A stretch of DNA of 64,000 bases from Gammaproteobacteria bacterium (GCA_965221955.1 CBDCTA010000018.1:128001-192000); one strand, 5' to 3'. Positions 1,182-64,000 are shown, counted from the first letter of the stretch. Notes: generated from the letters alone by a model not told the origin. Numbers and translations are program-made.

Positions 1182-1185
1182 TTGT

Positions 1186-4807: not shown

Positions 4808-4997
4808 AATATACCCTCTTATGTCCGCTTTGGGTCGTAAGCAATCATTTTGCTTTTTTAAGAATTCTTAACCTGTTCATCTTTACAGCCAACTTAACTT
4901 TAATCTGACATTGCATCTCGCCAGAAATTGCATCCTGTATTTCTAGCACTTCCTACGTCCATGTAGGTCGTCCTACTCTATACCTTAATTCATTTAA

Positions 4998-6013: not shown

Positions 6014-6019
6014 TAAAGC

Positions 6020-6823: not shown

Positions 6824-6838
6824 AATGCATCATTAATT

Positions 6839-7567
6839 TTATTCGTCTTCAAGCTCGTCATAGAGTTCATCATCAGTCGCAATCTCACCATCATTAACCA
6901 AAAATTCACGACGATCTAAGTATGCATCACGTATAAATACATAACGATCACGACTTAATTCTTCAGCTTTTTCTTCCAACTTCATCAATTCAGCTCGAGT
7001 ACTCACAAGATTCATGGCAAATAAGCCATTGCGCTCAGAAGTTTTGATATCAGCCCAACTAGGTGGATAAATAACGGTATCCACTACTTTGCCTGGGCCA
7101 TCACGAAGATTACTTGGACCAAAGAGTGGCAACACTATGTAAGGTCCTGTTCCCATACCCCAATAACCCAAGGTCTGGCCAAAATCTTCTTCATGTTTTT
7201 CTAAACCCATTCGGCTCGCAACATCCATAAACCCTAATAAACCGATTGTGGAGTTCACAATGATACGACCGATATCCGATGCAGCATCCAAAAACTTAAA
7301 TTGCAGCGTGTTATTAAATGCAACACCAACATCGCCTAAATTAGAAAAGAAATTACTCACACCTTGTTCAGCAATATCTGGCGTAACTGCGCGATAACTT
7401 GATGCAGCAGGAACTAGAAACGCACGATCTAAAGCATCATTAAAACTATATACTTTGCGATTGAAGCCTTGCCAAGGATCTCTTTCGTCAGCAGTGTATT
7501 CGGGTGAAGTGGCACACGCACTTCCAAGCAAAGCAATAATTAGTATATAAGCAAGATTTTTAGCCAT
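6839..7567 (-). CDS. mlaA: MlaA/VacJ phospholipid-asymmetry lipoprotein
   Basis: Lipobox GSAC; DPWQGFNR, EDFGQTLGYWG and GPYIVLPLFGPS motifs. Confidence 0.93.
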   Translation of the reverse strand: MAKNLAYILIIALLGSACATSPEYTADERDPWQGFNRKVYSFNDALDRAFLVPAASSYRAVTPDIAEQGVSNFFSNLGDVGVAFNNTLQFKFLDAASDIGRIIVNSTIGLLGFMDVASRMGLEKHEEDFGQTLGYWGMGTGPYIVLPLFGPSNLRDGPGKVVDTVIYPPSWADIKTSERNGLFAMNLVSTRAELMKLEEKAEELSRDRYVFIRDAYLDRREFLVNDGEIATDDELYDELEDE

Positions 7568-7609
7568 GATGATTTCGTAAGATATTAGTAGTTGTTGTTT
7601 TAAATTGAT

Positions 7610-8830
7610 TTAGCCGCGATGTCTAGAAGATTTTGCCGCGATGCGCATTCGCAATGCATTGAGCTTGATAAAACCCTCCGCATCTTGTTGATTATAAGCA
7701 CCCTCATCATCTTCAAAGGTGGCAATATTAGCATCAAATAAGCTATGTTCAGTTGATTTGCGTCCCACGACCATAACATTCCCTTTATACAATTTGATTC
7801 TCACCGTACCTGTCACATTAATCTGCGTAGCGTCAATGCATTGTTGCATCATTAAACGCTCAGGGCTCCACCAGTAGCCATTGTAAATCAAATTAGCATA
7901 ACGCGGCATGAGTTCATCTTTTAAGTGCGCAACTTCCCTATCCATAGTCAGTGATTCCATGGCACGATGCGCTTTCAATAAGATTGTGCCACCTGGTGTT
8001 TCATAACATCCGCGTGATTTCATGCCTACATAACGATTTTCGACAATATCTTGTCGTCCCACACCATGTTCGCATGCAATATTATTCAGATAGGTTAATA
8101 ATTGCGCAGGTGTTTGCGATTCACCATTAATGCTGACTGCATCACCACATTCAAAACCTATTTCAAGATACGCAGGATCATTTGGCGCTTCTTCTGGTGA
8201 ACAGCTTAACTTCCACATCTCTTCTTCAGGTTCATTCCATGGATCTTCTAGTGGCCCGCCTTCATAAGAAATATGTAGCAAATTGGCATCCATTGAATAC
8301 GGGGATTTCTTACCTCGTTTTTGTTCCACTGCAATACCGTGTTTCTCAGCATAGCTTAATAGCTTTTCTCGAGAGTTAAGGTCCCATTCTCTCCATGGAG
8401 CTATAATTTTAATATCAGGATTTAACGCATAAGCACCCAGTTCAAAACGCACTTGATCATTCCCCTTACCCGTTGCACCATGCGACACGGCATCAGCACC
8501 AGTCTCTGCTGCAATCTCTACTAAACGTTTAGCTATGAGTGGGCGCGCAATTGAGGTACCTAATAAGTATTCACCTTCATACACTGTGTTGGCACGAAAC
8601 ATTGGAAATACATACTCTCTCACAAATTCTTCGGTAAGATCTTCGATGTAAATTTCTTTAATTCCCAACGCTTGGGCTTTAGCACGTGCGGGCTCCACTT
8701 CCTCTCCTTGCCCAATATTTGCTGTGAAAGTCACAACTTCACAGTTATAAACTTCTTGCAGCCATTTGAGAATCACAGAAGTATCTAAACCACCCGAATA
8801 GGCGAGTACAACTTTTCGAACTGATGACAT
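7610..8830 (-). CDS. argG: Argininosuccinate synthase
   Basis: [22 protein letters not shown] and [10 protein letters not shown] motifs. Confidence 0.97.
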
Positions 8831-8913
8831 AGTATGTATTGAACTGAATATTAGTTATTTAATCGAGAATTATAACTTGAATGCACACATTAGCTAGCAA
8901 AAGAAAATTCTAA

Positions 8914-9543
8914 GTGAGCGAAGAAGCACAAGAATTCATCCCTTTCGCTAATCATTTACGCGGCTTTTGCCCAGTGGTGATCGATGTCGAGACAGGAGGC
9001 TTCAATTCTGAAACTGATGCGCTTTTAGAAATTGCTGCTGTATTAATCAGCATAAACCAAGATGGCGAGCTATACAGAAAAGAAACCATCTCTACCCACG
9101 TTAAACCATTTGAAGGCGCGAACCTTGAACAAGCCTCTTTAGAAGTAAATGGGATTGATCCATTTCATCCGCTACGCATTGCCTTAGATGAAAAACAAGC
9201 TCTACCTGAAATTTTTAAGCCTGTTCGTAAACATGTAAAAGAGAATAAATGCACACGCGCAATTCTCGTTGGCCACAATGCATTTTTTGATCTCGGATTT
9301 CTTAATGCCGCCGCCGCACGCAATAATATTAAAAACAGTCCTTTTCATCCATTTAGCTGTTTAGATACCGTCACACTTGGCGCCTTAGCCTATGGCCAAA
9401 CAGTGCTATCCAGAATTGCACAAGCTGCAGAAATTGAGTGGGACAATAACAACGCTCACTCTGCTATTTATGATGCAGAGAAAACCGCAGATGTATTTTG
9501 TAAGGTAATGAACTTATGGAAAAAACTAAAAGCTTCTGAGTAA
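8914..9543 (+). CDS. rnt: Ribonuclease T
   Basis: DEDDh motifs: VIDVETGG, LVGHNAFFD, HPFSCLDT, AHSAIYD. Confidence 0.93.
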   Translation: MSEEAQEFIPFANHLRGFCPVVIDVETGGFNSETDALLEIAAVLISINQDGELYRKETISTHVKPFEGANLEQASLEVNGIDPFHPLRIALDEKQALPEIFKPVRKHVKENKCTRAILVGHNAFFDLGFLNAAAARNNIKNSPFHPFSCLDTVTLGALAYGQTVLSRIAQAAEIEWDNNNAHSAIYDAEKTADVFCKVMNLWKKLKASE

Positions 9544-9550
9544 CCCATTA

Positions 9551-9865
9551 CTAACCAATCGCTTCATCTACCATTTTTTGTAATTCACCTTTCTCATGCA
9601 GGTCGAGCGTGATATCACAGCCACCTATAAGCTCACCTTTAATATAAAGCTGAGGAAAGGTAGGCCAGTCAGCATATCGAGGTAGATTTTCAAAAATTTC
9701 TGGGTCCATCAATACATTTACATAGGCAAATTCTTTTCCACACGACTTCAATGCTTCAGCCGTACGACTTGAAAATCCACACTGCGGCATTTGTGGTGTG
9801 CCCTTCATGTATAGAATGACGGAATTTGATTCAACTTGCTCTTTAATTCGATCCAATACATCCAT
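9551..9865 (-). CDS. grxD: Monothiol glutaredoxin Grx4
   Basis: MKGTPQMPQCGFS, WPTFPQLY and GGCDI; likely start MDVLDRI at 9865. Confidence 0.93.
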   Translation of the reverse strand: MDVLDRIKEQVESNSVILYMKGTPQMPQCGFSSRTAEALKSCGKEFAYVNVLMDPEIFENLPRYADWPTFPQLYIKGELIGGCDITLDLHEKGELQKMVDEAIG

Positions 9866-9919
9866 TTTCAAAGCTCCAAAATAACTCAATAATTTATGCA
9901 ATATTTTACTGCGCTACCA

Positions 9920-11707
9920 TTAAGTGGCAATAGCAGTATCCACATTGCGCTGCAACCATAGCTCTAATAAGGCTAAATGCCAAAGCTTACTACCTTGTAA
10001 AGGCGTCATGAACTCCTCAGGTTTATTTAATAGCTTATTCACATAATCTCTCTGAAATAACCCTCGCTGTCTACAAGCGTGAGAATTTAAAATATCCTGC
10101 ATGAAACATAAGAATTCTCCACGCACATATTTAAGCGCAGGAACTGGAAAGTAACCTTTTTTACGATCAATCACTTTATCGGGTAACAATCCTCGAGCAA
10201 TTTTTTTGAGCAAATACTTTCCAGAATTTTTAATTTTATATTCTGTTGGTATCTGCATCGCCAACTCTACTAATTCATGATCCAAAAAAGGCACTCGCGC
10301 CTCTAAACCAAATGCCATCGTCATGTTGTCCACGCGTTTTACAGGATCATCGACAATCAAAGTAGTCACATCCATATGTAATACCGCGGCTAAGAAATCT
10401 TGAGTGTCCGCCGCATCTAATAGTTGCGTCATTTTTTCTGTTGTAAAATCTTCTGCAATAAAATCAGTACTTAAAGTTTCTACAATTTCTGCATGACTAC
10501 GATCAAAATAATGTTTAGCAAAACTCTCAACTGAAAATTTATTTTCTGCCTGCATCTTCGGATACCAAAAGTAACCCCCGAATACTTCATCCGCACCTTG
10601 ACCAGACTGTACTACGGAAATATGTTGGCTGACTTGTTCGGCTAATAAATAAAATGCTACTGCATCTTGACCCACCATAGGTTCAGCCATTTGCTCAACA
10701 GCTTCAGGCAACCTTTTCATGACCTCTTCATTCTGAATATAGAACTTATGATGTTGTGTAGAAAACCTTTCTACTACGGCATCCGAATACTCAAACTCGT
10801 TACCTTGCTCTTCAGGTTGATCTTCAAAACCAACCGAATAAGTTCGTATATCGTTTACACCCGATTCTGCTAGCAAACCCACTAACAAACTTGAATCCAA
10901 ACCACCCGACAACAATACACCAACGGGCACATCTGCTATATGTAATCTTCGTTCAACTGCTAATCTTAATGCAGCATGTATTGCTTCAATCCATTCTTCC
11001 TCTGAATATTGTTGATCAATTCTATTTGCATGTAGCTCCCAATAACGTTGGGTAACTACCTTGCCATGTTTATTTACTACTATGTAATGAGCAGGCGGAA
11101 CCTTACGAATACCTTTGAGGATTGTGGTTGGTGCAGGCACTACAGCATGCAAGGTTAAATGATGATGCAATCCGACAGAATCAAACTCTGTATTCACTCC
11201 TCCTGCTGCCAGCAATGCCTGCGAATTAGATGCAAATCGAAAATAATTTTTATGTTGTGAATAATAAAGTGGCTTAATGCCTAAACGGTCACGCGCTAAA
11301 AAAAGTTCTTGTTTGCTTTCATCCCATATTGCAAACGCAAACATACCAATCAACTTCGCAACACAGTCGTTCCCCCACTCTGCATAGGCCTTGAGAATAA
11401 CTTCAGTATCACCGGTTGAACGAAAATGGTGGCCTTTGTGTAAAAGTTTTTCGCGCAACTCGGGATAATTATAAATCGTGCCGTTAAATACAATGGTTAA
11501 TTTATTTGCCTCATCATGCATAGGTTGATTCGCATTTTCAGACAAATCTATTATCGACAAACGTCTATGCCCAAATCCGATTGATTTAGAAAGATAGATT
11601 CCTTCATTATCAGGCCCACGCCTTTGCAACGGCACAAGCATTCGTTGCAATACTTGTTTACTAGCAGTGGTTTGATCCAAGCGCAATTCACCGCATATTC
11701 CACACAT
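9920..11707 (-). CDS. AsnB-family glutamine amidotransferase, N-acetylglutaminylglutamine amidotransferase-like
   Basis: N-terminal MCGICG (Ntn Cys), LLSGGLDSS, SGQGADEVFGGY, LIVDDPVKRVDNMTMA, GSKLWHLALLELWL. Confidence 0.8.
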   Translation of the reverse strand: MCGICGELRLDQTTASKQVLQRMLVPLQRRGPDNEGIYLSKSIGFGHRRLSIIDLSENANQPMHDEANKLTIVFNGTIYNYPELREKLLHKGHHFRSTGDTEVILKAYAEWGNDCVAKLIGMFAFAIWDESKQELFLARDRLGIKPLYYSQHKNYFRFASNSQALLAAGGVNTEFDSVGLHHHLTLHAVVPAPTTILKGIRKVPPAHYIVVNKHGKVVTQRYWELHANRIDQQYSEEEWIEAIHAALRLAVERRLHIADVPVGVLLSGGLDSSLLVGLLAESGVNDIRTYSVGFEDQPEEQGNEFEYSDAVVERFSTQHHKFYIQNEEVMKRLPEAVEQMAEPMVGQDAVAFYLLAEQVSQHISVVQSGQGADEVFGGYFWYPKMQAENKFSVESFAKHYFDRSHAEIVETLSTDFIAEDFTTEKMTQLLDAADTQDFLAAVLHMDVTTLIVDDPVKRVDNMTMAFGLEARVPFLDHELVELAMQIPTEYKIKNSGKYLLKKIARGLLPDKVIDRKKGYFPVPALKYVRGEFLCFMQDILNSHACRQRGLFQRDYVNKLLNKPEEFMTPLQGSKLWHLALLELWLQRNVDTAIAT

Positions 11708-11862
11708 TATTACTTCCCTGAACTAAGTTATTTTTTTAACTTGTGAATGCCCGCATATTTTTTCATCAATAAAGTATTACTATTAATGTACTAACAACAG
11801 ATAAACCAAATGAAAATTAGATTGTATTACACTTTAGTTCTTAAAAATATTGCATAGAAGTT

Positions 11863-13026
11863 GTGAAAATTATTGCTAGCTGGTCAAATTCAATATCCAA
11901 CATCCCAAAAAAAGACTGGAACGCGCTTAAAAGCAAAAACGCGCTTTCAAGCTGGGGCTGGTTGCGTACGATTGAGGAGACAGCCTCTCAAAATTGGAGG
12001 CTTTTATACTTACTTCTACATGACGACAATAACCAGCTAATCGGTGCAGCTATATGCCAAACGATTAACCAATCTACTGATGACCGCATGGATGCTCTCA
12101 TTTTTGGGCGACTACAAAGATTAGCGAGGCATTCTCATCTTTCAATGGCTCCTGCCTTGGCTTGCGGATCTTGTGGCACATATGGAGTACATTTACTTAC
12201 TTACTCTGCTATCTCATCAAATAAACAGTACATTATAGAAAATTATTTACTTGACTCGATTGAATCCAAAGCACGCGAATTGAAATTACCACTCGCTTTT
12301 GTGCATGTACTGGAATCTCAGCAAAACCTGATTGAAAAACTTAAAAAACGTAAATTTATCGGCACATCTATCCCACCAATGACTCAACTTGATGTTACTT
12401 GGAAAGAGTTTTCAGGTTACGAATTACATACTAAAAATATTTCTCTTAATTCTTTCAAAATGATTAGAAAAGAACGTAACCGAAATAAACACGAAGGAGT
12501 AGTCATTGAAGTTTTAAATGACGTTGAACAGCATCAAGAACGTTTAATTGAACTACTTAATATGACCACCCTTAAATATAGTGGCGTACCTTTTTGGTAT
12601 AAAGATAATTTCTTTTCTAAATTAAAAGAAAATCTTGCCAATGAAGCTGTTATCTTTGCTGCGTGGAAACAAAATAAATTGGTTGGTGTCTGCGTATTAT
12701 TATGTAGTACTGACGAGGGGTTTTTAACAGAAATAGGGGTTGATCATGAATTCTGTGGAAATGATTTTACCTATTTCAACATCGCTTACTATACTCCAAT
12801 TGAATGGGCTATAAATAACAATTTAAGAAAACTTCATCTTGATAACGCACTACAAGAATTAAAACTTCGCCGCGGTTTTTATCTCGTAAATGATTATTTT
12901 TACTATAAACCGAATAGTCTTATCTGTCGTTATACAGTACGTTGGTTATTTAATTTACACACTAGATGGTTTCAGTATAAGCATGCTCATTTGAAACGTT
13001 GGCATAGTCTTGGACAAAAGACTTGA
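11863..13026 (+). CDS. GNAT/FemAB-like (BioF2-type) acyltransferase-fold protein
   Basis: SISNIPKKDWNAL N-terminus, IRKERNR, FTYFNIAYY and LKLRRG; paralog of 20040 and 21263. Confidence 0.7.
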   Translation: MKIIASWSNSISNIPKKDWNALKSKNALSSWGWLRTIEETASQNWRLLYLLLHDDNNQLIGAAICQTINQSTDDRMDALIFGRLQRLARHSHLSMAPALACGSCGTYGVHLLTYSAISSNKQYIIENYLLDSIESKARELKLPLAFVHVLESQQNLIEKLKKRKFIGTSIPPMTQLDVTWKEFSGYELHTKNISLNSFKMIRKERNRNKHEGVVIEVLNDVEQHQERLIELLNMTTLKYSGVPFWYKDNFFSKLKENLANEAVIFAAWKQNKLVGVCVLLCSTDEGFLTEIGVDHEFCGNDFTYFNIAYYTPIEWAINNNLRKLHLDNALQELKLRRGFYLVNDYFYYKPNSLICRYTVRWLFNLHTRWFQYKHAHLKRWHSLGQKT

Positions 13027-14278
13027 ATTTTCCTGCAGCTCCACGTTCAATACGGTTTACGTGCTTTACAAGAATAGTTGCTTTAGGAAACTCTACATGC
13101 AATGCTGATTTAATAGAGTTTTGCAACTCTAAACTAAACTTATTTTTTGGCACTACACAAACTTCAAATTCATTAATATTTATTTGTCTAACTTGAAACT
13201 CACGTATTTGATCAGCCAAAGCATCAAATACGCCAATAAAAGCGGTGGGTGATTTCAGACTACCATCATCACATATAGCAAAGTCCACCAATCTACCCGA
13301 CAAATTATTCATAAGTAAAAATGTTCTACCACAAGAACATTGCTTTAAATTACAACTGCCTATGTCACCGATTCGATATCGAATAAATGGCATGGTTAAA
13401 TTATTTAGTATGGTAAAAGTGAGCTCGCCTTTTTCTCCTGGTGGCAGCGGATTCTGATCTTGATCAAGAAATTCAATTAACACACAATCTTCTGCAACGT
13501 GATAGCCACTATGTTCTTTACATTCGTATGCTATATTACCCGCCTCATAGGTACCATAAACATCAATTACATCAGCAGAAAATGCTTTTCTTATTAGGTT
13601 ACGTGTCCCTAACGAGAGCATTTCAGAATCAGTGAAAACAAGCTTAGGCTTAGATATTTCTATTTTCTGGTCAATAATTTCCTGTGCAATTAGCCCTAAT
13701 TCTGAACCATATCCTTGAATAATTTTTGGACGTATTTTATTTATTAGTTCTATTTGCCTAAGCGTGTTTGAATTTGCATAGCAAAATGTTTCTTTTAATA
13801 TTCCAATTTTTTGTATCAAAGATTGTTGTACTCCCGACTCACTACAAAAACGCAAAACATGATCAGTAATTTTCCTGCCATTAGTCAAATATGGTCTTAA
13901 ATATTGAGCCTTGCGAAATTGGTTATATTCGTGATCCACAAAAAATTCCAATGACAAGCCACTTGACCCAGAAGTTTTGATAGATTTCAGCAGCTCGATT
14001 TGGCTATTTTTATCTAAGTAACTTGAAATATTTTCTGTGTGATAATCTTTTTTTGAGATTGTCGGAAAATACTTTAAATCATTTATCGTTTGTATATCTG
14101 TAGGTTTAACCCCTGCCTGATCAAAAAGATGCTTATAAAACGGGACGTTTTGATACGCATGACTTACAAGGTAACGCAATCTATTCAACTGGTACGCAAG
14201 GATAAACTTTCTTGATTTTCTTTCATTTCGCATCAGTCTATAAAGATGCGAGTATTTATTTTTTATCGGCGAGATCAC
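12962..14278 (-). CDS. CapK/phenylacetate-CoA ligase-like adenylate-forming enzyme
   Basis: AYQNVPFY, KTSGSSG P-loop, DVYGTYEAG, MPFIRYRIGD and GKFKSFV. Confidence 0.85.
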   Translation of the reverse strand: MISPIKNKYSHLYRLMRNERKSRKFILAYQLNRLRYLVSHAYQNVPFYKHLFDQAGVKPTDIQTINDLKYFPTISKKDYHTENISSYLDKNSQIELLKSIKTSGSSGLSLEFFVDHEYNQFRKAQYLRPYLTNGRKITDHVLRFCSESGVQQSLIQKIGILKETFCYANSNTLRQIELINKIRPKIIQGYGSELGLIAQEIIDQKIEISKPKLVFTDSEMLSLGTRNLIRKAFSADVIDVYGTYEAGNIAYECKEHSGYHVAEDCVLIEFLDQDQNPLPPGEKGELTFTILNNLTMPFIRYRIGDIGSCNLKQCSCGRTFLLMNNLSGRLVDFAICDDGSLKSPTAFIGVFDALADQIREFQVRQININEFEVCVVPKNKFSLELQNSIKSALHVEFPKATILVKHVNRIERGAAGKFKSFVQDYANVSNEHAYTETI

Positions 14279-14339
14279 GAATATAGATTACAAAAATAAA
14301 TTTAAGATCATCAAAACAAATATTAATTTTCACTTATCT

Positions 14340-16229
14340 TTAGTTCACGTCTATGAAATTTCGAAACCAAATTTCCATAGATAACATCCTCCATCCTACC
14401 TCCACATATCTACGCACGTATTTCTGACCAATATATTTTGAAGCAAACAAGGTATGTAATTTATTTTTGTCGAGTATGCCGCGCTGTAAACATTTAGTAG
14501 ATAATAATATTTCACTTAGCATTTTATAATTAGACTCTGAAGACAACCATTGCCCATAAGGCGCAGGAAAACCTAATTTTACTTTTCTGCGTATAATTTT
14601 TTTTGGCAAATCGTCAATCAATGCTTCTCTAAGTATTCTCTTTGTCCATCCATTACTGATTTTTTGTTCACTTGGTAACGCAAAACAGAATTCCACCAAT
14701 CTATGATCAAGAAATGGAGCACGAGACTCTACTGAAAATGCCATGCTTGCGGCATCACATCCATGCAAACTTTCGGGTAAGCCTGCATAAGAAAAGTCAT
14801 GCCACAATGCATTATCTAGTCTGTTCAAAAAAGGCTTATGAATATCATTAGATAGCTTAGCACCTCTTTTTTTCAACAAACTAACTTCACCAAATTGATT
14901 TCTAAATTCTCTAGTAGCGCACTGCTTCCACGGATATGTTGGTAATAGTTTTTTTGTAGAATTTAATAGCGTTGTAATGAAATAATTATTTTTATAACCA
15001 CCTATTGCATTTAGTTGGTTTATTTCTTGCACCAATTTCTTGAGTCGATTCCATTGTTTTTTTTGCTTAATTTCATGCAAACTATCTAACAAATATGGTG
15101 TAACAAAAAAACTGTAGCCCGCTAAAAGCTCGTCACTTCCTGTTCCTTCCAACATTACTCTTACATCTTGGCTCGCTTGCCTCATGACCGCCCAATGAGG
15201 AAGCCTCCCACGTATTGCTGTAGGCGCATCATGATGCCAGACAATCTCTTGAATTAAATCAATCGTATTTTTTGCATCTGGCTCAACCCAATGAATTTCG
15301 CATTTTGCTTTATCTGCAACGATACTTGCGTAACCACTTTCGTCATATGGCTGACCTAAATAACGCAGAGAATAACAATCAGGATGCACATCTTCATTCG
15401 CCGCCAATCTAACAATTGCTGACGAATCAAGACCGCCACTTAAAGCAGCACCTAAAGGAACATCACTACGCAATCGCAAACGAGTTGCATCTCTCAATAG
15501 TTCCTTAAATAAATCAACATTCTCTTCAATAGCTAAGGTATTAACATCAGAACCAATTTCCCAATATTTTTGCTTATCCACCCCACCATTCTCAGCAAAA
15601 GTCATATAGGTAGCTGGAGATACGGTTTTAATGTTTGCAAAAAAAGTTTGCTCCCCGACGTCTGGAGACCCTCCCATTAAGTAAGAATGAATTTCTTCAA
15701 AATTAGCTTGTTTTTCTTCTGGAAAAGCTGCAAGTATTGCTTTTGCTTCTGATGAAAAAACTATTCTATTCCCTAAAATAGAATAATACAGCGGCTTAAT
15801 ACCAAAGCGGTCTCTACACAGAGTCAGTTTTTTATTCGCTAAATCCCATATTGCTAAGGCCCACATTCCATTAAACTTACTAAATGCTAACGTGCCCCAA
15901 CATTTGAATGCATTTAATACAACTTCAGTATCACCACTTGTTCGAAATAAATAGCCTAATGTTATTAGCTCAGCACGAAGCTCTTTATAATTATGCACTT
16001 CACCGTTGTAACTTATAATGAATTTACTATCATCATCAACCATTGGCTGTAATGACAATTCAGATACATCAATAATACTGAGACGTGTATGCCCTATTCC
16101 AATAGCACCATCTCGCCAAATATCTTGACCATCTGGCCCCCGATGCTTAATAGAATCAAGCATGTTAGTCAATGCATTTTCATCAACTTGCTGGCCATCA
16201 CGCAACCATATTCCCGCGATTCCACACAT
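14340..16229 (-). CDS. asnB: Asparagine synthase (glutamine-hydrolysing) family amidotransferase, polysaccharide-cluster type
   Basis: MCGIAG, HRGPD, RDRFGIKPLY, LSGGLDSS, GSDELLAGY and ESRAPFLD. Confidence 0.88.
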   Translation of the reverse strand: MCGIAGIWLRDGQQVDENALTNMLDSIKHRGPDGQDIWRDGAIGIGHTRLSIIDVSELSLQPMVDDDSKFIISYNGEVHNYKELRAELITLGYLFRTSGDTEVVLNAFKCWGTLAFSKFNGMWALAIWDLANKKLTLCRDRFGIKPLYYSILGNRIVFSSEAKAILAAFPEEKQANFEEIHSYLMGGSPDVGEQTFFANIKTVSPATYMTFAENGGVDKQKYWEIGSDVNTLAIEENVDLFKELLRDATRLRLRSDVPLGAALSGGLDSSAIVRLAANEDVHPDCYSLRYLGQPYDESGYASIVADKAKCEIHWVEPDAKNTIDLIQEIVWHHDAPTAIRGRLPHWAVMRQASQDVRVMLEGTGSDELLAGYSFFVTPYLLDSLHEIKQKKQWNRLKKLVQEINQLNAIGGYKNNYFITTLLNSTKKLLPTYPWKQCATREFRNQFGEVSLLKKRGAKLSNDIHKPFLNRLDNALWHDFSYAGLPESLHGCDAASMAFSVESRAPFLDHRLVEFCFALPSEQKISNGWTKRILREALIDDLPKKIIRRKVKLGFPAPYGQWLSSESNYKMLSEILLSTKCLQRGILDKNKLHTLFASKYIGQKYVRRYVEVGWRMLSMEIWFRNFIDVN

Positions 16230-16409
16230 CTGTAATATTGTTTTTTGGTAAATTCTAATTGGCTTTATTCTTTATTAAAGTTTAGTCAATATATTAAATA
16301 AATACTTGATACAGTAGACATTATTAATTTATACACTAGTTAAAATATGAATTTCTCTTATTCATTTACCACCCATAAATCTTCTGTCAATTCTTAATAA
16401 CTTATTGCA

Positions 16410-17396
16410 ATGAATATATGCATCATAGGCAGCGGATCGATAGGCGGTTTGATTGCTGCAAACCTAGCGCCCAGTGAAAATAAAATTACTGTGTTTGATA
16501 AAGGCGAACATTACGAGGCAATCAAAAATTATGGCCTGAAACTACAACAATTAAATGGAAAGACTGTTTGTATTGATAATTTAGATGTCATTGACAGTCT
16601 AAATACATGCGAACAACAAGATATAATTTTCCTAGCTGTAAAAGCACATCAAATTCGCTCTATTTGCAAAGAAATTCCAAATCTCTTACACGAAAATTCA
16701 ACGTTAGTAACACTACAAAATGGAATTCCATGGTGGTTTTTTCAAAACTATAATGGGAAATTTGATAACCATATACTTAAAACCGTAGACCCTGAAAGCT
16801 CAATTAACGAAAATATTCCAAGCAAGTATGTAATTGGTTGCGTATCTTATCCTGCAGCCGAAATAATCTCTCCAGGATTGATAAAACATATTGAGGGAGT
16901 TCGATTTCCAGTTGGCGAACTAGACGGAACTATTTCCGAAAGGTCAAAATCAGTTTCTACGCTACTTATTAATGCAGGTTTTAAATCACCCATTTTAGAA
17001 GATATCCGCAGCGAAATATGGTTAAAAGCTTGGGGCACACTCGCATTTAACCCTATAAGTGTCTTAACAAAGGCTACAATGTCTCAAATATGTAAATTTC
17101 AAGAGACAAGAGAAATTGTTATACAGTTAATGAAAGAATCTCGAAATATTGCTGAACAACTTGGCATTAAACTCCGAGTACCACTTGAACAACGCCTTAG
17201 AGGCGCAGAAAAAGTAGGTGAGCATAAAACGTCAATGCTACAAGATTTTGAGGCCAAGCGAACATTAGAGTTAGAGGCAACACTTGGCGCCATTATTGAA
17301 TTAGCAGAATTAACCCAAATTGATGTGCCCCACTTAAGAAGCTTATATGCAGTAACAAAACTAGCTGACGTTGTTAACCGTTCAGCATATTGTTGA
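16410..17396 (+). CDS. Ketopantoate reductase (PanE/ApbA)-family 2-oxoacid reductase
   Basis: GSGSIG Rossmann motif, LAVKAH, LQNGIPWW, WLKAWG, FNPIS and HKTSMLQD. Confidence 0.85.
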   Translation: MNICIIGSGSIGGLIAANLAPSENKITVFDKGEHYEAIKNYGLKLQQLNGKTVCIDNLDVIDSLNTCEQQDIIFLAVKAHQIRSICKEIPNLLHENSTLVTLQNGIPWWFFQNYNGKFDNHILKTVDPESSINENIPSKYVIGCVSYPAAEIISPGLIKHIEGVRFPVGELDGTISERSKSVSTLLINAGFKSPILEDIRSEIWLKAWGTLAFNPISVLTKATMSQICKFQETREIVIQLMKESRNIAEQLGIKLRVPLEQRLRGAEKVGEHKTSMLQDFEAKRTLELEATLGAIIELAELTQIDVPHLRSLYAVTKLADVVNRSAYC

Positions 17397-53953: not shown

Positions 53954-55904
53954 ATGGCAACTTCCAATCTTCCTGACAATCCACGCTTTCGCCTGGGTTT
54001 CCGCGACACCTTTCGGATCTTATGGCCTTACGGTAAACGAAAACTTTATGAGCCAGATTGAAGGAATTTGGTTTATTGTTTTTTACCTTATTATTTTCCA
54101 GCTACTCGTCTTACAGCTACCCATTGTATATGCCGCAATGATTGCCGTTGGAATATTTATTGTGGCACTTGGCTTGATGTTCTTCATGGAAGGGCTACGG
54201 CTGGGATTAATGCCACTTGGCGAAATCATTGGTAGTGTTTTACCACGTAAAAGTGGTATGCCACTTATTTTGATATTCGCTTTTTTACTCGGTGCAGGCG
54301 CAACATTTGCAGAACCTGCAATTGCAGTTCTAAAAGCAGCAGGCAGCGGAGTACGTGCTAGCGAAGCACCATTGTTATATAGCTTGCTAAATGATTTTTC
54401 TAGCCAGCTTGTAAGCAGTGTTGGTGTCGGTGTAGGACTTGCAGTGATGCTTGGCATACTTCGTTTTTTCTATGCATGGCCACTCAAGTATCTTGCCATT
54501 CCCGCAGTGATGGGATTACTTGGATTATCGTTTTATTTTAGTCAGGTACCAGCACTACGTGATGTGTTAGGCCTAGCATGGGACTGCGGCGCGGTTACAA
54601 CCGGGCCGGTTACAGTGCCTTTAGTGTTAGCACTTGGAATTGGCGTTTGTCGTGTTGTTAGCAGTGGCTCAGGCGGTGGCGGCGGACACTCAGGATTTGG
54701 AATTGTCACCCTAGCCTCTTTATTCCCAATTCTTGCCGTTTTGTTACTCGCATTATTCCATTATGCCAGTAACGACTATTATGGCGCTTCAAATTACAAA
54801 GGAAACAAAATTGTTGAGACGAAAACCGTAACTACACTCGATGATACTACATCACTTGATTCAAAACTCGAAGCCATAACAGAAGAAGAGTTTTCTACTT
54901 ACTTAAAAACAGGTGCTTTGCCAAATAGGTATGAATTAGATTTTGATGGAGGCAAAGCAGAACTCGTAGACGGAAAAATTGTTATTACAGATCCAAATCT
55001 TGTCGTGAAAAAGATTTACTCACGTGATTTTAAATTGATTAGTGAAAGCACTTGGGATGAAAATTATTCAATTTCAGATCAGTTACGGGAAGCTTTCGTT
55101 GGTGCATTACGCGCAATAATTCCTTTATGTTTATTTTTATATTTTGTCTTACGTCTAATACTGAATCAACGTTTAGATAAAGGAAATGACGTAGGAATCG
55201 GGGTTACTTTTGCACTAGTAGGAATGGCTTTATTTGGATTAGGGATTGCCCTTGGCCTCACTCCACTTGGTGGACAATTAGGAAGCAATATACCGCTTGC
55301 ATTTGCTGAAATTGTTCCATGGGGATTTGAACATGTTGAAGGACCATTGTTTGGCGATGGCCATGCAGGAAAATTAGTTGCAATAGGGTTTGCATTTTTT
55401 TTAGGCTATGGAGCAACCCTAGCAGAACCTGCTTTAAATGCATTGGGTGATACGGTTGAGCGTATAACGGTTGGCGCATTTCGCAAAAAACTTCTCATGC
55501 AAGCAGTTGCTATAGGTGTAGGTTTAGGAATTGCTGCAGGTATTGTGAAAATGGCCTACAACTTACCTTTAATTTGGATGCTAATCCCGCCATATGCCTT
55601 AGTCCTTCTTTTAACTTGGCGCGCACCAGACAGCTTCGTTAATTTTGGTTGGGATAGTGCCGGCGTAACGACTGGCCCTATAACAGTGCCTTTAGTTTTA
55701 GCCATGGGTCTTGGTGTAGGCGCAAACATACCTGGTGTAAGTGATGGATTCGGAATTCTAGCACTCGCATCTGTTGGACCGATTTTAACGGTACTATCTG
55801 TTGGACTATACACACAAAGAAATGAGAAAAAAGCTGAGAAAGAAAACTTACCTGACCCAGGAATTGAATTAGATAGCGATTCTACAGAATTAGGAACAAC
55901 ATAA
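53954..55904 (+). CDS. Double DUF1538 membrane transporter-like protein (probable frameshift near 54032)
   Basis: Two repeats of ATxAEPA...WDxxxVTTGPxTVPLVLAxG. The upstream ATG 53954 frame MATSNLPDNPRFRLGFRDTFRILWPY is 1 nt out of frame with ORF 54048. Confidence 0.8.
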
Positions 55905-55906
55905 TT

Positions 55907-57109
55907 ATGTTTAATACTAAACACGAAATATCACATATTACTGCTGTATTACCTACGAATTCAGCAGACACTGTCGTGAGCACACTTACTTCAAGAGAAG
56001 TAACTGATGTTTTAGTCTCACAAGCTCGCGGCACGTTACTTCGTGATCATTGGTGGAAGTCTTGGGTACCGCCTATTAGCCCTTCTAAAACCATGTTACA
56101 GATGGTTGTACCTGTACACGATGTTGACCGTGTTGTCGGATTAGTTATTGAAGAAGGAAAGTTAGACATGCAAGCATCTGGGGCTGTTTTTAGCACACCC
56201 TGTGAAAGTGCATACGTAGGTTCTTTGTTTCACAATTTACGCACAACTGAAACATTAGAGATCAACAATAATTCACATAAGCTTTCTGAAAATCTCTGCG
56301 CAATCTTCTGTAGCATTAGCCATGTGCAAAGCGATCGTGTAGCAAAAGCCGCAATCAATGCTGGCGCACATGGTCCAGTTGTTTATTACGCTGAAGGAAA
56401 AGGTCTACGAGACCGTCTTGGCTGGTTACGCATCACAAAAGATAGCGAACAAGAAGTTATGATGGTGCTTGCCGATAATTCCGATGTAGAGGAAATATTC
56501 ACAGCAATGGCTAAAGCTGGAGAATTTCATTTACCTGCACGTGGGTTCATGTATAGCCTACCTATCGATAAAGGCATGTTTAATTTGCCAAGTAGAATCG
56601 CTAATCCACATTACCCTGCTAATACACAGCAAATAATTCATGCCATTGACCACTTAACAGGTCATACTCATTGGCGGGATCAAGCAGTTTTCGATGTTGG
56701 TGGAGAAGGCAAAGGCACTGGTCTTAAGTTTTTACAACAAAACAAAGAATCCTTAACGAATCAAGTATGTTTCTCAGCTGTAGTAAATCGTGACCAATCA
56801 CAAGATTTTATGGATTTGATGTTGGATTCTGGCGCACCTGGTCTTAATGTTAGTTATTCACGATTTGTAGCTATGGGTGACGATGACTATGAACTCGCAC
56901 ATGCAAATGTAAATCATGAATATGCAACGATTCGTTGCATTACTAATCAAAAAACTGCTGACACAATTACACAAAAAATAGAGTCAAGTGCAGAACAAAA
57001 AGGAATTCAAGATCTTTGTGTTCTAACACATGCCGTGCCACGTATCGCAAAATATGTACCTGGTGAAAAAGATCATCGCAAAAACCCAAAATTAGCGATG
57101 GCTTCATAA
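55907..57109 (+). CDS. Multi-domain P-II-like protein
   Basis: Three ~100 aa ferredoxin-like units (ITAVLP...ARGT; KAAINAGAHGPVVYYAEGKG...; DLMLDSGAPG); 2 nt downstream of the DUF1538 gene. Confidence 0.6.
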   Translation: MFNTKHEISHITAVLPTNSADTVVSTLTSREVTDVLVSQARGTLLRDHWWKSWVPPISPSKTMLQMVVPVHDVDRVVGLVIEEGKLDMQASGAVFSTPCESAYVGSLFHNLRTTETLEINNNSHKLSENLCAIFCSISHVQSDRVAKAAINAGAHGPVVYYAEGKGLRDRLGWLRITKDSEQEVMMVLADNSDVEEIFTAMAKAGEFHLPARGFMYSLPIDKGMFNLPSRIANPHYPANTQQIIHAIDHLTGHTHWRDQAVFDVGGEGKGTGLKFLQQNKESLTNQVCFSAVVNRDQSQDFMDLMLDSGAPGLNVSYSRFVAMGDDDYELAHANVNHEYATIRCITNQKTADTITQKIESSAEQKGIQDLCVLTHAVPRIAKYVPGEKDHRKNPKLAMAS

Positions 57110-60378: not shown

Positions 60379-60580
60379 AAAATTCAGACTCAGCTTTTAC
60401 ACGCAAGCCTATTATAAATAAATATTGACAGACTTATGACGAACTTGTTGTGCTTTGTTATGCACACAAAAGAAATTAAACGTTGCGATCGCCCAATGTG
60501 TTTTAATAAAAACAATTACTTATTTTTGAAATCTGGATCTTTGAGTCGTACTACTGCTGGACAATAGTTGTGAATATTTA

Positions 60581-62272
60581 TCAGTTATTCATGGCATCAG
60601 TAGCAATACCAAGATAATTTTCACTTGCCATTAGTGTCGTTTCAGAAAATGTAGGATGTGGATGTATGACATGAGCTAAATCTTGCGGCGTTAAACCAAG
60701 ATCAATTGCTAAGGTAAGTTCTGTTATTAAGTCTCCCGCATTTGGACCAATGATTCCAGCTCCTAGAATTTTATCGGTTTCTGGATCAACTAATATTTTA
60801 GTCAAACCGATATTTTGACCATGGCATAATAATCGTCCGTTAATATTCCAATTTACTTTTCCAGTATTGTAATCAATATTATTTGATTTAGCTTTTTCCT
60901 CAGTTAACCCTACCCATGCGATTTCAGGGTCTGTATATACAACAGCAGGAATTGAGGGTAATCGAATGCTAGGAGAGCACCCCATGATTAGTTCTGCAAC
61001 AGCCTTCCCCTCATATACAGCCTTATGAGCTAACATAGGGCCACCTATTACATCGCCGATTGCATAAATACCTGAAACAGATGTTTGAAGATTTTCATCT
61101 ACTTCAATAAATCCGCGCTCAGTGCTTGTAATATTAATTCTTTCAATATTTAATTCGGTTGTTCGCGGTTTTCTCCCTATTGCCACTAGCACCTTATCAA
61201 CCTTCTCAAAATAATCTTTATTGGCCTTTGATATAGTTACGGCAATTCCATCCTTATCAAATTCTGCACAAGATACTTTTGATTGCAAGTAAAGATTTTC
61301 ATAGCCTTCTAGTTTCTCTTTCTCAAACGCAGATACAAGGTCAGGGTCTACTCCAAATAATATAGAACTTCCCAATTCAACTAATGTTACTCGAGACCCT
61401 AAAGCTTGATAGACACTAGCCATCTCCATACCAATAACCCCGCACCCGATTACCATTAATCGGTTCGGAATTTCTTCAATTTCAAGGGCATTATCCGATG
61501 ACATTACTTTATCATGCGTGATATCAAAGTGTTTATGCTGGATAGGATAGGAGCCTGTTGCAATTATCGCATGCTTAAATGCGACTACAGTTGTTTGCGC
61601 ATCACAGTTTATGCTTATTTTATTTTTTGACTCGAAGGAGGCACATCCTGTTAAGACAATTATATTTCGTTTACTAGCTAAATGCTTAATTCCACCTGTG
61701 AGCTTTGCAACAACTGAGTTTTTCCAGTTACGCAGCTTATGAATATCTATAGCAAAACTTTTGAAGCTAATTCCTAGCTGCGCACTATCTTCTACTTCTT
61801 GAATAACATTGGCAGCATGAAGCAAAGCTTTGGAGGGAATACACCCAACATTCAAACAAGTTCCCCCTAAGCTTGAATCTTTATTAACTAGTAAAACTTT
61901 TGCCCCAAGGTCCGCACAGCGAAATGCAGCTGTATATCCCCCGGGTCCAGCGCCTATAACAACAACATCAACATCATACGAATCTGTATTATCTGATGTA
62001 TTTACAGTTTCATTATCATTTTTTTCAGAAGAAGTAGTTTCTAGCTTTATTAACAAATGGGTTGATGTAATTACACTACCAACAATTACATTAACCAAGT
62101 TTACTACTCCTGGGTGTTCTGCTGAAATTTCCAGCGTTGTTTTTTCTCCCTCAACTACAACTAATAGATCACCTTGATTAACTACATCGCCTTTAGACAC
62201 ATGCACTTCGGTCACATCATATTCTGATGTGTCAAGTTCATCTGACACACAAACATCTATTATATTTGACAT
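60581..62272 (-). CDS. lpdA: Dihydrolipoamide dehydrogenase with N-terminal lipoyl domain
   Basis: Lipoyl domain (VEGEKTTLEI), GAGPGGY, GGTCLNVGCIPSK, AIGDV, LAHKA and HPHPTFSE. Confidence 0.9.
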   Translation of the reverse strand: MSNIIDVCVSDELDTSEYDVTEVHVSKGDVVNQGDLLVVVEGEKTTLEISAEHPGVVNLVNVIVGSVITSTHLLIKLETTSSEKNDNETVNTSDNTDSYDVDVVVIGAGPGGYTAAFRCADLGAKVLLVNKDSSLGGTCLNVGCIPSKALLHAANVIQEVEDSAQLGISFKSFAIDIHKLRNWKNSVVAKLTGGIKHLASKRNIIVLTGCASFESKNKISINCDAQTTVVAFKHAIIATGSYPIQHKHFDITHDKVMSSDNALEIEEIPNRLMVIGCGVIGMEMASVYQALGSRVTLVELGSSILFGVDPDLVSAFEKEKLEGYENLYLQSKVSCAEFDKDGIAVTISKANKDYFEKVDKVLVAIGRKPRTTELNIERINITSTERGFIEVDENLQTSVSGIYAIGDVIGGPMLAHKAVYEGKAVAELIMGCSPSIRLPSIPAVVYTDPEIAWVGLTEEKAKSNNIDYNTGKVNWNINGRLLCHGQNIGLTKILVDPETDKILGAGIIGPNAGDLITELTLAIDLGLTPQDLAHVIHPHPTFSETTLMASENYLGIATDAMNN

Positions 62273-62287
62273 TTATCTACACACAGA

Positions 62288-62324
62288 AAAGTCTCTCAAG
62301 ACCGCAGCAAACTTGAGAGACTTT
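62288..62324 (-). terminator. Hairpin/terminator between osmC-like gene and lpdA
   Basis: AAAGTCTCTCAAG-(11 nt loop)-CTTGAGAGACTTT, 13-bp stem. Confidence 0.65.
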
Positions 62325-62388
62325 ATTTAGGAGGAGTATCTACTATGAATCTGCGGATATGTTGCTTTAGTTAATTTAATATAACTCA

Positions 62389-62919
62389 CTATGCAGCATT
62401 TGATACAGAGCCGTTAATGCTGACTTCTTTATCTACCTCAACACTTCTAACCATCATATCCAGCACAGGACACTGTGCATCAACAGCATTTGCTAATTGC
62501 TCTAATGACTCTTGGTCGGCTGGACTTTCAATCGATGTTTTATAAGTAATTTTAGTAAAGCCTGGTGGAACTCCATCACCCATCCCTAATAATCCACGAA
62601 CATCAAGGTCACCCTGTAATTTCACGGAACATTTTGTTAACGGAATTCCCATAACCGAAGCCAGTGCTGCATACATTATTTCCTGACAAGTACCTAATGC
62701 TACTAATACCATCTCAACTGGGCTTGGCCCTAAATCACTGCCACCAAACGGTGGTGGCTCATCAATAGTTATCGTTGGAAATTTTCTGACATTTGCTGTG
62801 CAACGTACATCTTCTTCCCAATTTGTTGATACATCATATTTAAACTGACCAGATTTTGGGTTAGCAGTAACGCCTTCAATTATTTTTGTAACTGCATTTT
62901 TAATATCTTCTTGAGACAT
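62389..62919 (-). CDS. OsmC/Ohr family peroxiredoxin-like protein
   Basis: DEPPPFGGSDLGPSPVE, ALGTC and QCPVLD (two Cys), GDLDVRG; RBS AGGAG. Confidence 0.85.
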   Translation of the reverse strand: MSQEDIKNAVTKIIEGVTANPKSGQFKYDVSTNWEEDVRCTANVRKFPTITIDEPPPFGGSDLGPSPVEMVLVALGTCQEIMYAALASVMGIPLTKCSVKLQGDLDVRGLLGMGDGVPPGFTKITYKTSIESPADQESLEQLANAVDAQCPVLDMMVRSVEVDKEVSINGSVSNAA

Positions 62920-62948
62920 GTCTAACTCCTGAATTATTTATATTTTAT

Positions 62949-64000
62949 TTAAAATTTAATCGTCCATGCGATATCTGCATCAAAACCTGACTCGTATCCT
63001 ATTCGTGTCCCTTCTCCTACCTGACTAAATAAGTCACCACTTCCGTCATCTTTTTCAGTGTGACCTAATTTGTACACGATACTTGCAGCGATTGAGTTTC
63101 TTTTAGTTTTACCGAATGCATATTCACCACCAGCAGCAATACTAGTTTGATATACAGTTGGAGCTAATGAGTTTGCAAAGACAACATCAGATCGAACGGG
63201 TGATCTTCCATAATTGACACCCGCTCGCAAAGTAATGTTTGGTGTGTATTTATATTGTGTGCCTAAACCTACGGTGTGTTGATCAACGTAACCAAAGCCG
63301 CCTTCAGTGGGCTCTTTTTCAAAAAGTCTAATTTCTTCCCACCCAATCCATTTGTAATCAAGTGTAAGATCCCATTTTGGTGTGACATGCCATGCAAGCC
63401 CTACTCGAAATTCAGGCGGTAATTCAAAATCTGGAATAACATCTTTATATGGACCAAATTCTTCAAAGCGTGTTTTTGCTTGATAGGCGACACCAACAGA
63501 CCATTGATCATTAAAGTCATAGATCAAGCCTACATGTGGTGCATATCCATATGAAATTTCAAGATCACCACTGCCTTCTGTTTGAGGAAAAGCAGCAGGA
63601 GTTGCACTTGGTGTGGGAACCGCAAAATCTCCAGAAAAGAAGGCCGCACTTATTTGCAATGAAGCGCCTAGGGTAAGGTTTTCGTACAAATCATAAGATA
63701 CGGCCGGAACGGCTTTGAGTACAAACAAGAAGGATTCAGTATCATAATCTTGATCGCCTTCAAGTAACGCAGGATTCAATCTTGGTGTTTCGTACTGGGC
63801 ACCTTCACCTGCGACACCTGCAATGGTGGCTCCAAATGCCCACTTAGAATCCTCAGCTTTATATGACACTCCAGAGAAAGGAGTTATATAAACAGTTTGA
63901 CCACTTTTTTCTTTACCAGAGTTAGGATTAGCGACACCTGCTCCTACTGTATTTCGCAAGTCTCTAAAGCGTTCTGCTTTTAACCAATGTGCACCTATGT
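62949..64000 (-). CDS. FadL/OmpP1/TodX-family outer-membrane transporter (5' end outside window)
   Basis: Frame is open to the window edge; amphipathic beta strands, LPPEFRVG, DYKWIGW and LRAGVNYG; C-terminal F. Confidence 0.75.
   Translation of the reverse strand, partial: IGAHWLKAERFRDLRNTVGAGVANPNSGKEKSGQTVYITPFSGVSYKAEDSKWAFGATIAGVAGEGAQYETPRLNPALLEGDQDYDTESFLFVLKAVPAVSYDLYENLTLGASLQISAAFFSGDFAVPTPSATPAAFPQTEGSGDLEISYGYAPHVGLIYDFNDQWSVGVAYQAKTRFEEFGPYKDVIPDFELPPEFRVGLAWHVTPKWDLTLDYKWIGWEEIRLFEKEPTEGGFGYVDQHTVGLGTQYKYTPNITLRAGVNYGRSPVRSDVVFANSLAPTVYQTSIAAGGEYAFGKTKRNSIAASIVYKLGHTEKDDGSGDLFSQVGEGTRIGYESGFDADIAWTIKF

Follow-up and report, generated by a model that had tools for sequence, protein, structure and literature searches.

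In the Lpd-DlaT(SucB)-AhpD-AhpC relay of Mycobacterium tuberculosis, NADH, dihydrolipoamide dehydrogenase (Lpd or E3) and a lipoyl protein feed a thiol peroxidase; this relay uses AhpD and AhpC, not OsmC, and its carrier is the E2 subunit of pyruvate dehydrogenase (PDH). Ohr/OsmC family proteins are described in PMC5384416 as being reduced by protein-bound lipoyl groups, with Ohr preferring fatty-acid hydroperoxides and peroxynitrite. In Trichomonas vaginalis, a hydrogenosomal OsmC is reported to detoxify peroxides together with L-protein and H-protein (Nyvltova et al. 2016). Here we analyse a three-gene cluster at the end of a 64,000-nucleotide stretch of DNA from a Gammaproteobacteria bacterium (GCA_965221955.1, CBDCTA010000018.1:128001-192000; hereafter the window). 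The cluster encodes a FadL/TodX-family channel, an OsmC-like protein and an E3 with its own N-terminal lipoyl domain. A sequence-only reading of the window had proposed that it is a dedicated lipoyl-powered redox module.

That reading also took the three-gene unit to be undescribed, which must be withdrawn: a relay of L-protein, H-protein and OsmC has been published from Trichomonas, and an OsmC/GcvH-like pair of bacteria is noted in a 2026 preprint (10.64898/2026.10.01.755906). The relay proposed for this locus belongs to the kind already known from Trichomonas. Going by the published outline of that system, the two have in common NADH, E3, a lipoyl group borne by a protein and a partner of the OsmC fold, arranged free-standing and outside the 2-oxoacid dehydrogenases. 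They differ in the carrier, which is H-protein in Trichomonas and here would be a biotin/lipoyl-type domain fused to E3, and in the setting, which here is a predicted bacterial operon with a kinase/regulator pair, an outer-membrane channel and an OsmC of another subfamily. The bacterial lipoyl-dependent Ohr/OsmC peroxidases (Cussiol et al. 2010, in PMC5384416; Ohr-dihydrolipoamide structure 6ebg) have the same fold, what is probably the same Cys pair and a reductant of like kind, dihydrolipoamide or lipoylated proteins together with Lpd, but as characterised there they borrow the lipoylated E2 and Lpd of central metabolism and their genes usually lie with OhrR, whereas the window locus encodes a private E3 and carrier. 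The OsmC-Lpd-GcvH-like cluster of Hyphomicrobium denitrificans (Hden_1301/Hden_1299), which the same preprint names in passing as a lipoylation substrate, shares the OsmC subfamily context and the proposed electron flow, with the order kinase-regulator-OsmC-E3-GcvH (locus L098). So far as that passing mention and L098 describe it, the Hyphomicrobium cluster has a separate GcvH-like carrier, an Lpd of a dedicated clade and no FadL-like gene, whereas the window locus has a fused carrier and a channel. Our searches found no literature joining methanethiol oxidase with OsmC, the papers that name methanethiol and OsmC do not describe the cluster, and among papers naming OsmC and GcvH only the preprint appears relevant (titles and abstracts; bioRxiv supplements lay outside the search). 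What is new is the operon form with a fused carrier, the kinase/regulator pair conserved with it, a channel of TodX-like type, a hairpin conserved in the spacer and the tie to the oxidation of methanethiol and dimethylsulfide.

On the evidence set out below, the balance tips slightly towards one joint explanation: that the FadL-like, OsmC-like and lipoyl-E3 genes would form a single operon downstream of a FixL/FixJ-like PAS kinase and a LuxR-type regulator, and that the products may act as a heme-free, NADH-driven reductase of H2O2, organic peroxides and possibly peroxynitrite. Open reading frame (ORF) calls and Pfam matches bear out three co-oriented genes on the minus strand (Table 1), with 29 nt between channel and OsmC and 116 nt between OsmC and E3. 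As had been claimed, the genes 5' of E3 are not E1 or E2 subunits; they are OsmC, the FadL-like gene and then, past the window end and co-oriented, genes for a LuxR-type response regulator and for a PAS histidine kinase (C18:192390-194232, where C18 is the host contig that holds the window). This part of C18 was re-read beyond the window as stretch L015 of the host genome (G000). A contig from a public run (X1), which may be the source sample, spans L015 1-4647 with zero differences, and a contig from a different study (X2) bridges the OsmC/FadL junction at L015 4803-5259. Neither tRNAs nor Rfam families were matched when the 14-kb region was scanned.

Table 1. Positions of the cluster features in the window
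Feature	Position	Strand	Remarks
Lipoyl-E3 gene	60581-62272	minus	ORF call, 563 aa
Lipoyl domain of E3	62018-62272	minus	about residues 1-85; Lys44 codon at 62141-62143
Stem-loop	62288-62324	minus	13-bp stem, 11-nt loop, then U-rich tail
OsmC-like gene	62389-62919	minus	ORF call, 176 aa
FadL/TodX-family channel gene	62949 to beyond 64000	minus	cut by window end; 423 aa, ends at C18:192220 (L015 4950-6221)

By its NCBIfam match the E3 is a true dihydrolipoyl dehydrogenase (TIGR01350, 505.2 bits versus a cut-off of 408.8), and it matches the Pfam families Pyr_redox_2 (3.3e-62), Pyr_redox_dim (8.7e-36) and Biotin_lipoyl (2.7e-10). The N-terminal lipoyl domain (PF00364, 40.3 bits versus 22.1) is matched over residues 18-77. 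Translation places the redox disulfide CLNVGC at residues 139-144, HPHPTFSE at 537-544 and the lipoyl Lys at Lys44; Lys44, Cys139, Cys144, His537 and Glu544 are invariant across 12 aligned lipoyl-E3s, and the lipoyl Lys, disulfide and HPHPTFSE dyad are intact, as first read. The local motif around Lys44 is EGEKT, the usual lipoyl-domain motif being (E/T)DKA, and Lys44 is the predicted lipoylation site of this E3.

The OsmC-like protein matches PF02566 (1.9e-18; 67.1 bits versus a cut-off of 27.5). Its AlphaFold model has a pLDDT of 88.6, and the best Foldseek match is 2opl, an uncharacterised Geobacter protein (TM 0.80), with 1lql, 1vla, E. coli OsmC and Ohr entries as further matches. In an alignment of the subfamily, Cys40, Cys150, Arg45 and Glu54 are invariant and Cys78 is nearly so. 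The description of the protein as a two-Cys OsmC is right in that Cys78 and Cys150, a putative peroxidatic/resolving pair, are conserved, but the protein contains four Cys (40, 78, 97 and 150) and Cys40 is invariant too.

Linkage of OsmC to E3 and a lipoyl carrier is a recurrent feature of this subfamily. A pattern scan with one genome per species gave 347 stretches, of which the best 80 were analysed by tblastn with the cluster proteins and by unbiased clustering of all ORFs. Partners were counted within 7 kb of OsmC, eight loci having less than 3 kb of sequence 3' of OsmC, and the raw counts overstate independence because related Thiobacillus genomes supply many loci. With that reservation, E3 is present at 33/80 loci and a GcvH-like carrier at 37/80; 42 loci have at least one of the two and 31 have both. 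A homologous kinase and regulator pair lies at 33 of the 80 loci, a FadL-like channel at 21, rhodanese at 17 and the methanethiol oxidase SBP56/MtoX, with SCO1/MauG, at 15. E3 occurs together with a FadL-like gene at six of the 80, and E3 or carrier plus a FadL-like gene at 12. Clustering recovered globin (14/80), ferredoxin-reductase-like (13/80), SQR-like flavoprotein (12/80) and fatty-acid desaturase (11/80) genes as other neighbours. The lipoyl Lys is kept in 39/40 GcvH-like proteins. In T. denitrificans (Thiobacillus) the order is kinase, regulator, OsmC, Lpd, GcvH-like and rhodanese, and the OsmC-linked Lpd scores 449.7 bits, above the cut-off, and has no lipoyl domain. A triad of desaturase, truncated globin and ferredoxin-reductase-like genes flanks kinase-regulator-OsmC clusters, often with a second kinase/regulator pair (L038, L039, L046, L050, L051, L053, L060, L062, L067, L076 and L093 among them). 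From these loci, the linkage of OsmC to E3 and lipoyl carrier appears to recur far beyond chance. The module is found widely across Pseudomonadota, isolated members also occurring in records of Nitrospirota, Nitrospinota and Actinomycetota, and the window locus appears to be the fused-carrier form of a module of OsmC, dedicated Lpd and GcvH-like protein, often joined by rhodanese, channel and kinase/regulator.

Trees suggest that this association arose repeatedly. In the E3 tree (59 rows, built by a quick method, leaving out truncated L083, L113 and L116 and redundant suc-linked L126-L130), OsmC linkage needs seven changes, at least four of them forced by starred branches, and E3 genes appear to have joined OsmC at least four separate times. 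The tree contains a dedicated 24-row clade of carrier-less Lpds without a lipoyl domain (99*) and several separate recruitments inside a PDH-type lipoyl-E3 clade (99*). In the OsmC tree (87 rows), E3/carrier linkage changes 14 times.

Gene order around the window channel is also kept in metagenomes. A scan of metagenome contigs with this channel as query yielded nine loci, one of them a spurious 29-residue match, and OsmC adjoins the channel in 8/8 informative loci. L187 and L188 are identical in this region and L189/L192 are a second pair (GC content 0.35-0.37). Both pairs have the order and orientation of the window locus, kinase-regulator-channel-OsmC-hairpin-lipoyl-E3, with identities to the window proteins of 48-53% for the kinase, 50-51% for the regulator, 78-79% for the channel and 66-69% for OsmC. 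Their E3s are 565 and 562 aa long and carry a Pfam lipoyl domain. A rhodanese precedes the kinase in L187, and L194 has the order channel-OsmC-MtoX. Within the 40 related genomes that we compared (24 of the same family, including 14 of the same genus, and 16 of other families), the picture is different. No E3 orthologue was found, the best match being 46% identical and all top matches being of the Acs-linked type described below; no channel orthologue was found, only housekeeping FadL at up to 32%. These two values rule out vertical conservation of the cluster in the genus. OsmC has its best matches (74% and 67%) at non-syntenic places, and the closest same-family OsmC loci (G011, G016) share no gene order with the window region. 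The subfamily is present in 14/24 same-family genomes versus 0/16 of other families. Conservation of the adjacency is thus upheld for two metagenomic lineages but not for E3 and channel among the 40 relatives.

The hairpin in the OsmC-E3 spacer was confirmed at its exact position (Table 1). Folding of the 116-nt spacer yields -28.1 kcal/mol (z = -3.0), the hairpin ends 15 nt before the E3 start codon, and a simple terminator scan did not call it. L187 (z = -4.8) and L189 (z = -3.4) have a hairpin and U-run of unrelated sequence at the same spacer position. The interval between hairpin and start codon is too short for a promoter; therefore the hairpin is probably an attenuator or RNA 3'-end stabiliser. 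It would probably lower the E3 transcript relative to FadL-OsmC and so set their ratio, rather than uncouple the genes.

The window E3 is an extra E3, as the idea of a dedicated paralogue demands, because the host has a housekeeping sucA-sucB-lpd on contig C13 (lpd 548 bits); this locus and a lipoyl-E3 on C2 rule out that it is the sole lpd. The C2 locus (L016, G000:C2:58000-74000) reads SfnG, FMN reductase, 106-aa ORF, NUDIX, OsmC, OsmC, acetate-CoA ligase (Acs), lipoyl-E3 and 96-aa ORF. Its SfnG is a dimethylsulfone monooxygenase (551 bits versus 383), its first OsmC has Ser in place of Cys78, and its lipoyl-E3 is 45% identical to the window E3. The core OsmC-OsmC-Acs-lipoyl-E3 is kept in at least six relatives (G010, G002, G004, G022, G019, G017). 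OsmC and lipoyl-E3 are thus paired twice in one genome. Additional, weaker E3-family members are present as well, the sole GcvH of the host lies on C3, and C22 carries an orphan E2. The host also has two identical 709-aa fusions of VTT/DedA and an E3-like flavoprotein (G000:C10:9221-11350 and C29; L018, L019), which adjoin a radical-SAM/DUF3641 gene and have similar genes of about 710 aa in relatives.

The channel matches PF03349 with 2.4e-19 for the part inside the window and 8.7e-23 (80.9 bits versus 29.7) at full length, and its translation has an N-terminal signal-peptide-like segment and a C-terminal Phe. Its nearest solved structures are TodX, TbuX and CymD (3brz, 3bry, 6z34; E 1e-16 to 1e-18), and the match to E. 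coli FadL is far weaker (E 5e-5). Like these proteins it is a FadL-family barrel that would be encoded within the operon of the pathway served; they serve monoaromatic hydrocarbons, whereas at this locus no aromatic-degradation genes are linked and the partners are redox and sulfur genes. In the FadL tree (30 rows) the window channel pairs with a Pelomicrobium channel (53% identity, 98*), whose gene likewise follows kinase-regulator-OsmC. Another 17 OsmC-locus channels form a single clade (99*) and the housekeeping FadLs another (99*). The host has a separate housekeeping FadL of the latter clade (452 aa, C22) that is conserved across relatives.

Regulator and kinase have FixJ/TtrR and AtoS/FixL as their nearest named relatives, all under the family cut-offs: the regulator scores 184.9 bits with the FixJ model versus 255, and the kinase 190 bits with the FixL model versus 850, a match that covers the kinase core (residues 143-393) only. 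In the regulator-FadL spacer (L015 6336-6390), repeated TACGTAC words overlap two promoter-like sites; no k-mer is common to this spacer and 25 regulator-OsmC spacers. Upstream of the kinase, L015 8711-13430 (C18:194710-199429) encodes an HPP membrane protein, a 210-aa ORF without family, SCO1/SenC, heme-copper oxidase subunits I and II, a cytochrome c and an Rrf2 regulator of divergent, NsrR-like type; this oxidase subunit I is divergent, with 61.6 bits versus a CtaD cut-off of 670. The only genes with DNA-level matches in the genus are the sulfatase gene downstream and one for a 181-aa LuxR-type protein. The segment of about 11 kb from E3 to the NsrR-like gene is accessory in this genome, because it has no DNA-level counterpart in the genus, E3 and channel have no orthologue there and the OsmC matches are non-syntenic. 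Two repeats bracket it. The first, a 120-bp AT-rich non-coding element just 3' of the E3 stop codon (window 60413-60532, L015 2413-2532), has copies in six same-genus genomes (77-89% identical, five of them at 88-89%) and a second host copy at G000:C26:76302-76421; tRNA and Rfam scans of it gave no match. It may be a small mobile repeat or small RNA that marks one edge of the segment. The second is a 48-nt repeat (L015 13611-13658, C18:199611-199658) that is multicopy in relatives (92-94% in G010) and shows high contig depth. Elsewhere in the window, at 54048-57109, the gene for a 400-aa protein whose N-terminal domain is P-II-like comes directly after that for a double DUF1538 membrane protein of 618 aa.

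In Pseudomonadota, genes of methanethiol oxidase (mtoX-SCO1/mauG) and of sulfide oxidation are grouped with the module. MtoX converts methanethiol to formaldehyde, H2S and H2O2 in the periplasm and its gene adjoins those of SCO1 and MauG, as described in PMC5739008. SBP56/MtoX occurs in 24/24 same-family relatives versus 1/16 genomes of other families; since the relatives share ancestry, the family distributions of mtoX and OsmC are not an independent test. The host has mtoX-SCO1-mauG and two peroxiredoxin-like genes on contig C28. In Methylophaga thiooxydans DMS010 (L072) the order is SCO1/MauG(-) MtoX(-) CysB(+) OsmC(+) lipoyl-E3(+) metallo-beta-lactamase(+) FadL-like(+) MFS(+). The true E3s of this genome are just two, the first following E2 and the second following OsmC; its TodX-like genes are also two, and each has an mtoX at a distance of no more than about 12 kb.

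Published transcript data for M. thiooxydans on dimethylsulfide versus methanol (Table S6 of PMC6548844) include genes that fit this cluster and that are about 20- to 80-fold up on dimethylsulfide. These are, all on the plus strand, a dihydrolipoamide dehydrogenase (1007 versus 15), a TodX-type 'membrane protein, aromatic hydrocarbon degradation' (1469 versus 18), a metallo-beta-lactamase protein (293 versus 16) and cysB (669 versus 11). The two mtoX copies rise from 37 to 17350 and from 20 to 4064, and PDH is not induced (E1 90 on dimethylsulfide versus 163 on methanol, E2 67 versus 132). All three gene types of the triad are induced 29- to 136-fold in the same data: desaturase (1359 versus 10), NAD-binding oxidoreductase (618 versus 12) and globin (601 versus 21). 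The induced genes are probably those of L072. The transcript reported to be most induced under sulfur limitation in 'Ca. Pelagibacter ubique' is that of an osmC preceded by a SAM riboswitch (50-fold; PMC5069961).

The genes present, the conservation of their key residues, the fold, the recurring linkage and, for one species, the published induction on dimethylsulfide are observations; the electron path, oxidant, cargo and regulation that follow are inferred. NADH would reduce the FAD and the Cys139-Cys144 disulfide of E3, which would in turn reduce its own N-terminal lipoyl-Lys44 arm. The dihydrolipoyl arm would then re-reduce Cys78/Cys150 of the cytoplasmic OsmC-fold protein, which would reduce a small oxidant. 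Judged by fold and precedent this oxidant is most likely a peroxide; it may also be an organic disulfide, for instance dimethyl disulfide. The TodX-like channel would pass a small hydrophobic sulfur compound through the outer membrane, and the module would be switched on during oxidation of methanethiol and other volatile methylated sulfur compounds. The path from NADH through E3 and lipoyl arm to OsmC, as the sequence-only reading drew it, appears well supported by the intact residues, the recurrent linkage of OsmC with E3 or carrier and the synteny.

Several observations weigh against this explanation. By curated models the OsmC-like protein seems to fall outside both the E. coli OsmC and the Ohr subfamilies: PRK10738 (E. 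coli-type OsmC) gives 17.6 bits versus a cut-off of 138, the nearest named model, NF041052 (OsmC-related (seleno)protein), gives 79.6 versus 95, and the three NCBIfam families listed for the protein include no Ohr model, none having been examined. We know of no enzymatically assayed member of this OsmC subfamily, and the third invariant Cys, Cys40, is unaccounted for by a peroxidase model. None of the partners is found at 25/80 loci. E3, carrier and channel are all absent from the neighbourhood of the closest OsmC relatives (63-74% identity, L022-L030), and in the OsmC tree the window protein falls in a nine-row group whose other members are unlinked. The window E3 sits in the PDH-type clade on a long branch (1.01 versus a median of 0.19) and shares no more than 38-42% identity with its counterparts on the syntenic metagenome contigs, the E3s of those two lineages being 56% identical to each other. 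Because identity is low despite synteny, this E3 would be fast-evolving or exchanged, and it may be a replacement at a position always held by a lipoyl-E3. In the host, lipB is intact (209 bits) and lipA is split by two in-frame TAG codons (G000:C8:15998-16856), which makes lipoylation capacity uncertain, a ligase not having been searched for. A second tandem mtoX copy (G000:C28:134161-135372) has one in-frame TAG; both genes could be pseudogenes, assembly errors or a TAG-related effect. The window cluster has no adjacent mtoX, rhodanese or GcvH, and what ties it to organosulfur compounds comes from relatives and from other parts of the genome. Neighbouring rhodanese and SQR-like genes would suit sulfane-sulfur chemistry no less than peroxide chemistry. 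The match of L072 to the published genes was made by annotation and strand, not accessions, and the E2 protein is up 7.5-fold in the proteome of the same study (PMC6548844).

The alternative that survives best, unlikely as we consider it, is an organic disulfide or polysulfide reductase, in which lipoyl arm and OsmC dithiol would reduce dimethyl disulfide, dimethyl trisulfide or persulfides entering through the channel and so yield methanethiol for MtoX. It would supply genes for the orphan NADH-dependent dimethyl disulfide reductase, EC 1.8.1.21, for which a 2026 review (PMC13039779) lists the gene as still unassigned. The module is present in the dimethyl disulfide or dimethylsulfide degraders T. 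thioparus DSM 505 (L056, L095), Hyphomicrobium (L098) and M. thiooxydans (L072), often adjoins mtoX, rhodanese and SQR-like genes and has NADH dependence built in; the channel type serves small volatile hydrophobic compounds, and a peroxidase model does not explain the invariant Cys40. However, the fold is, and the Cys pair with conserved Arg45 and Glu54 would be, of the thiol-peroxidase type, and we know of no OsmC/Ohr member that is a disulfide reductase. Dihydrolipoyl carriers might moreover reduce dimethyl disulfide without OsmC, and many hosts (Nitrospirota, methanotrophs) are not known to use it. A fuller version, marginally less probable again, would make OsmC and its private Lpd/carrier EC 1.8.1.21 itself, the channel the entry for methanethiol, dimethylsulfide and dimethyl disulfide, and the kinase/regulator the control of a 'methanethiol regulon' with mtoX, the desaturase-globin-reductase triad and sulfide-oxidation genes.

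The sequence-only reading had the channel import long-chain lipid hydroperoxides for reduction by OsmC and lipoyl-E3, which we find improbable. The channel is of the FadL family, fatty-acid desaturase genes lie near the module at the 11 loci counted above and Ohr, per PMC5384416, prefers fatty-acid hydroperoxides. Yet the channel is far nearer to TodX/TbuX/CymD than to long-chain FadL, the conserved FadL on C22 is a separate housekeeping protein, none of the 80 loci has linked genes for activation or beta-oxidation of fatty acids, and taking up a toxic substrate for detoxification is unparsimonious. Import of lipid hydroperoxides is therefore unsupported, because the channel is TodX-like and its setting, with mtoX, rhodanese and SQR-like genes as recurring neighbours and counterparts that are probably dimethylsulfide-induced, is one of volatile organosulfur oxidation.

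More doubtful still is a role in protecting the cell from peroxynitrite or nitrosative stress, with an O2/NO-responsive system of FixLJ-like type in control. It would draw on the reported reduction of peroxynitrite by Ohr (PMC5384416), on the accessory segment with its NsrR-like Rrf2 regulator, HPP protein and divergent heme-copper oxidase, and on the globins near the module at the 14 loci and in L187 and L189. Every regulator match falls under its family cut-off, however, and this explanation leaves channel, rhodanese, mtoX and dimethylsulfide induction unexplained. Least probable of all is that the neighbours are incidental and the lipoyl-E3 works for a glycine cleavage system or 2-oxoacid dehydrogenase whose genes lie elsewhere: its place inside the PDH-type clade, the hairpin between OsmC and E3 and the orphan E2 speak for it, but linkage recurs independently in many lineages and there is a dedicated OsmC-linked Lpd clade, the order is kept in two metagenomic lineages despite E3 divergence, the interval from hairpin to start codon leaves no room for a promoter and a housekeeping lpd is present.

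A peroxide-reducing relay at this locus would extend what is known of its kind. The biochemistry of free-standing lipoyl-OsmC relays comes from one protist, with one passing bacterial mention, and here a dedicated bacterial version appears widespread. It seems to have been assembled repeatedly from different E3 lineages, with the carrier either separate or fused, and it travels with a kinase/regulator pair and a TodX-like channel. The module is tied genomically, and in one cultured species apparently transcriptionally, to the oxidation of methanethiol and dimethylsulfide, a part of the marine sulfur cycle. It thus gives an assayable candidate for how these bacteria may deal with what methanethiol oxidation leaves as by-products, namely H2O2, H2S and disulfide, and one candidate for the dimethyl disulfide reductase.

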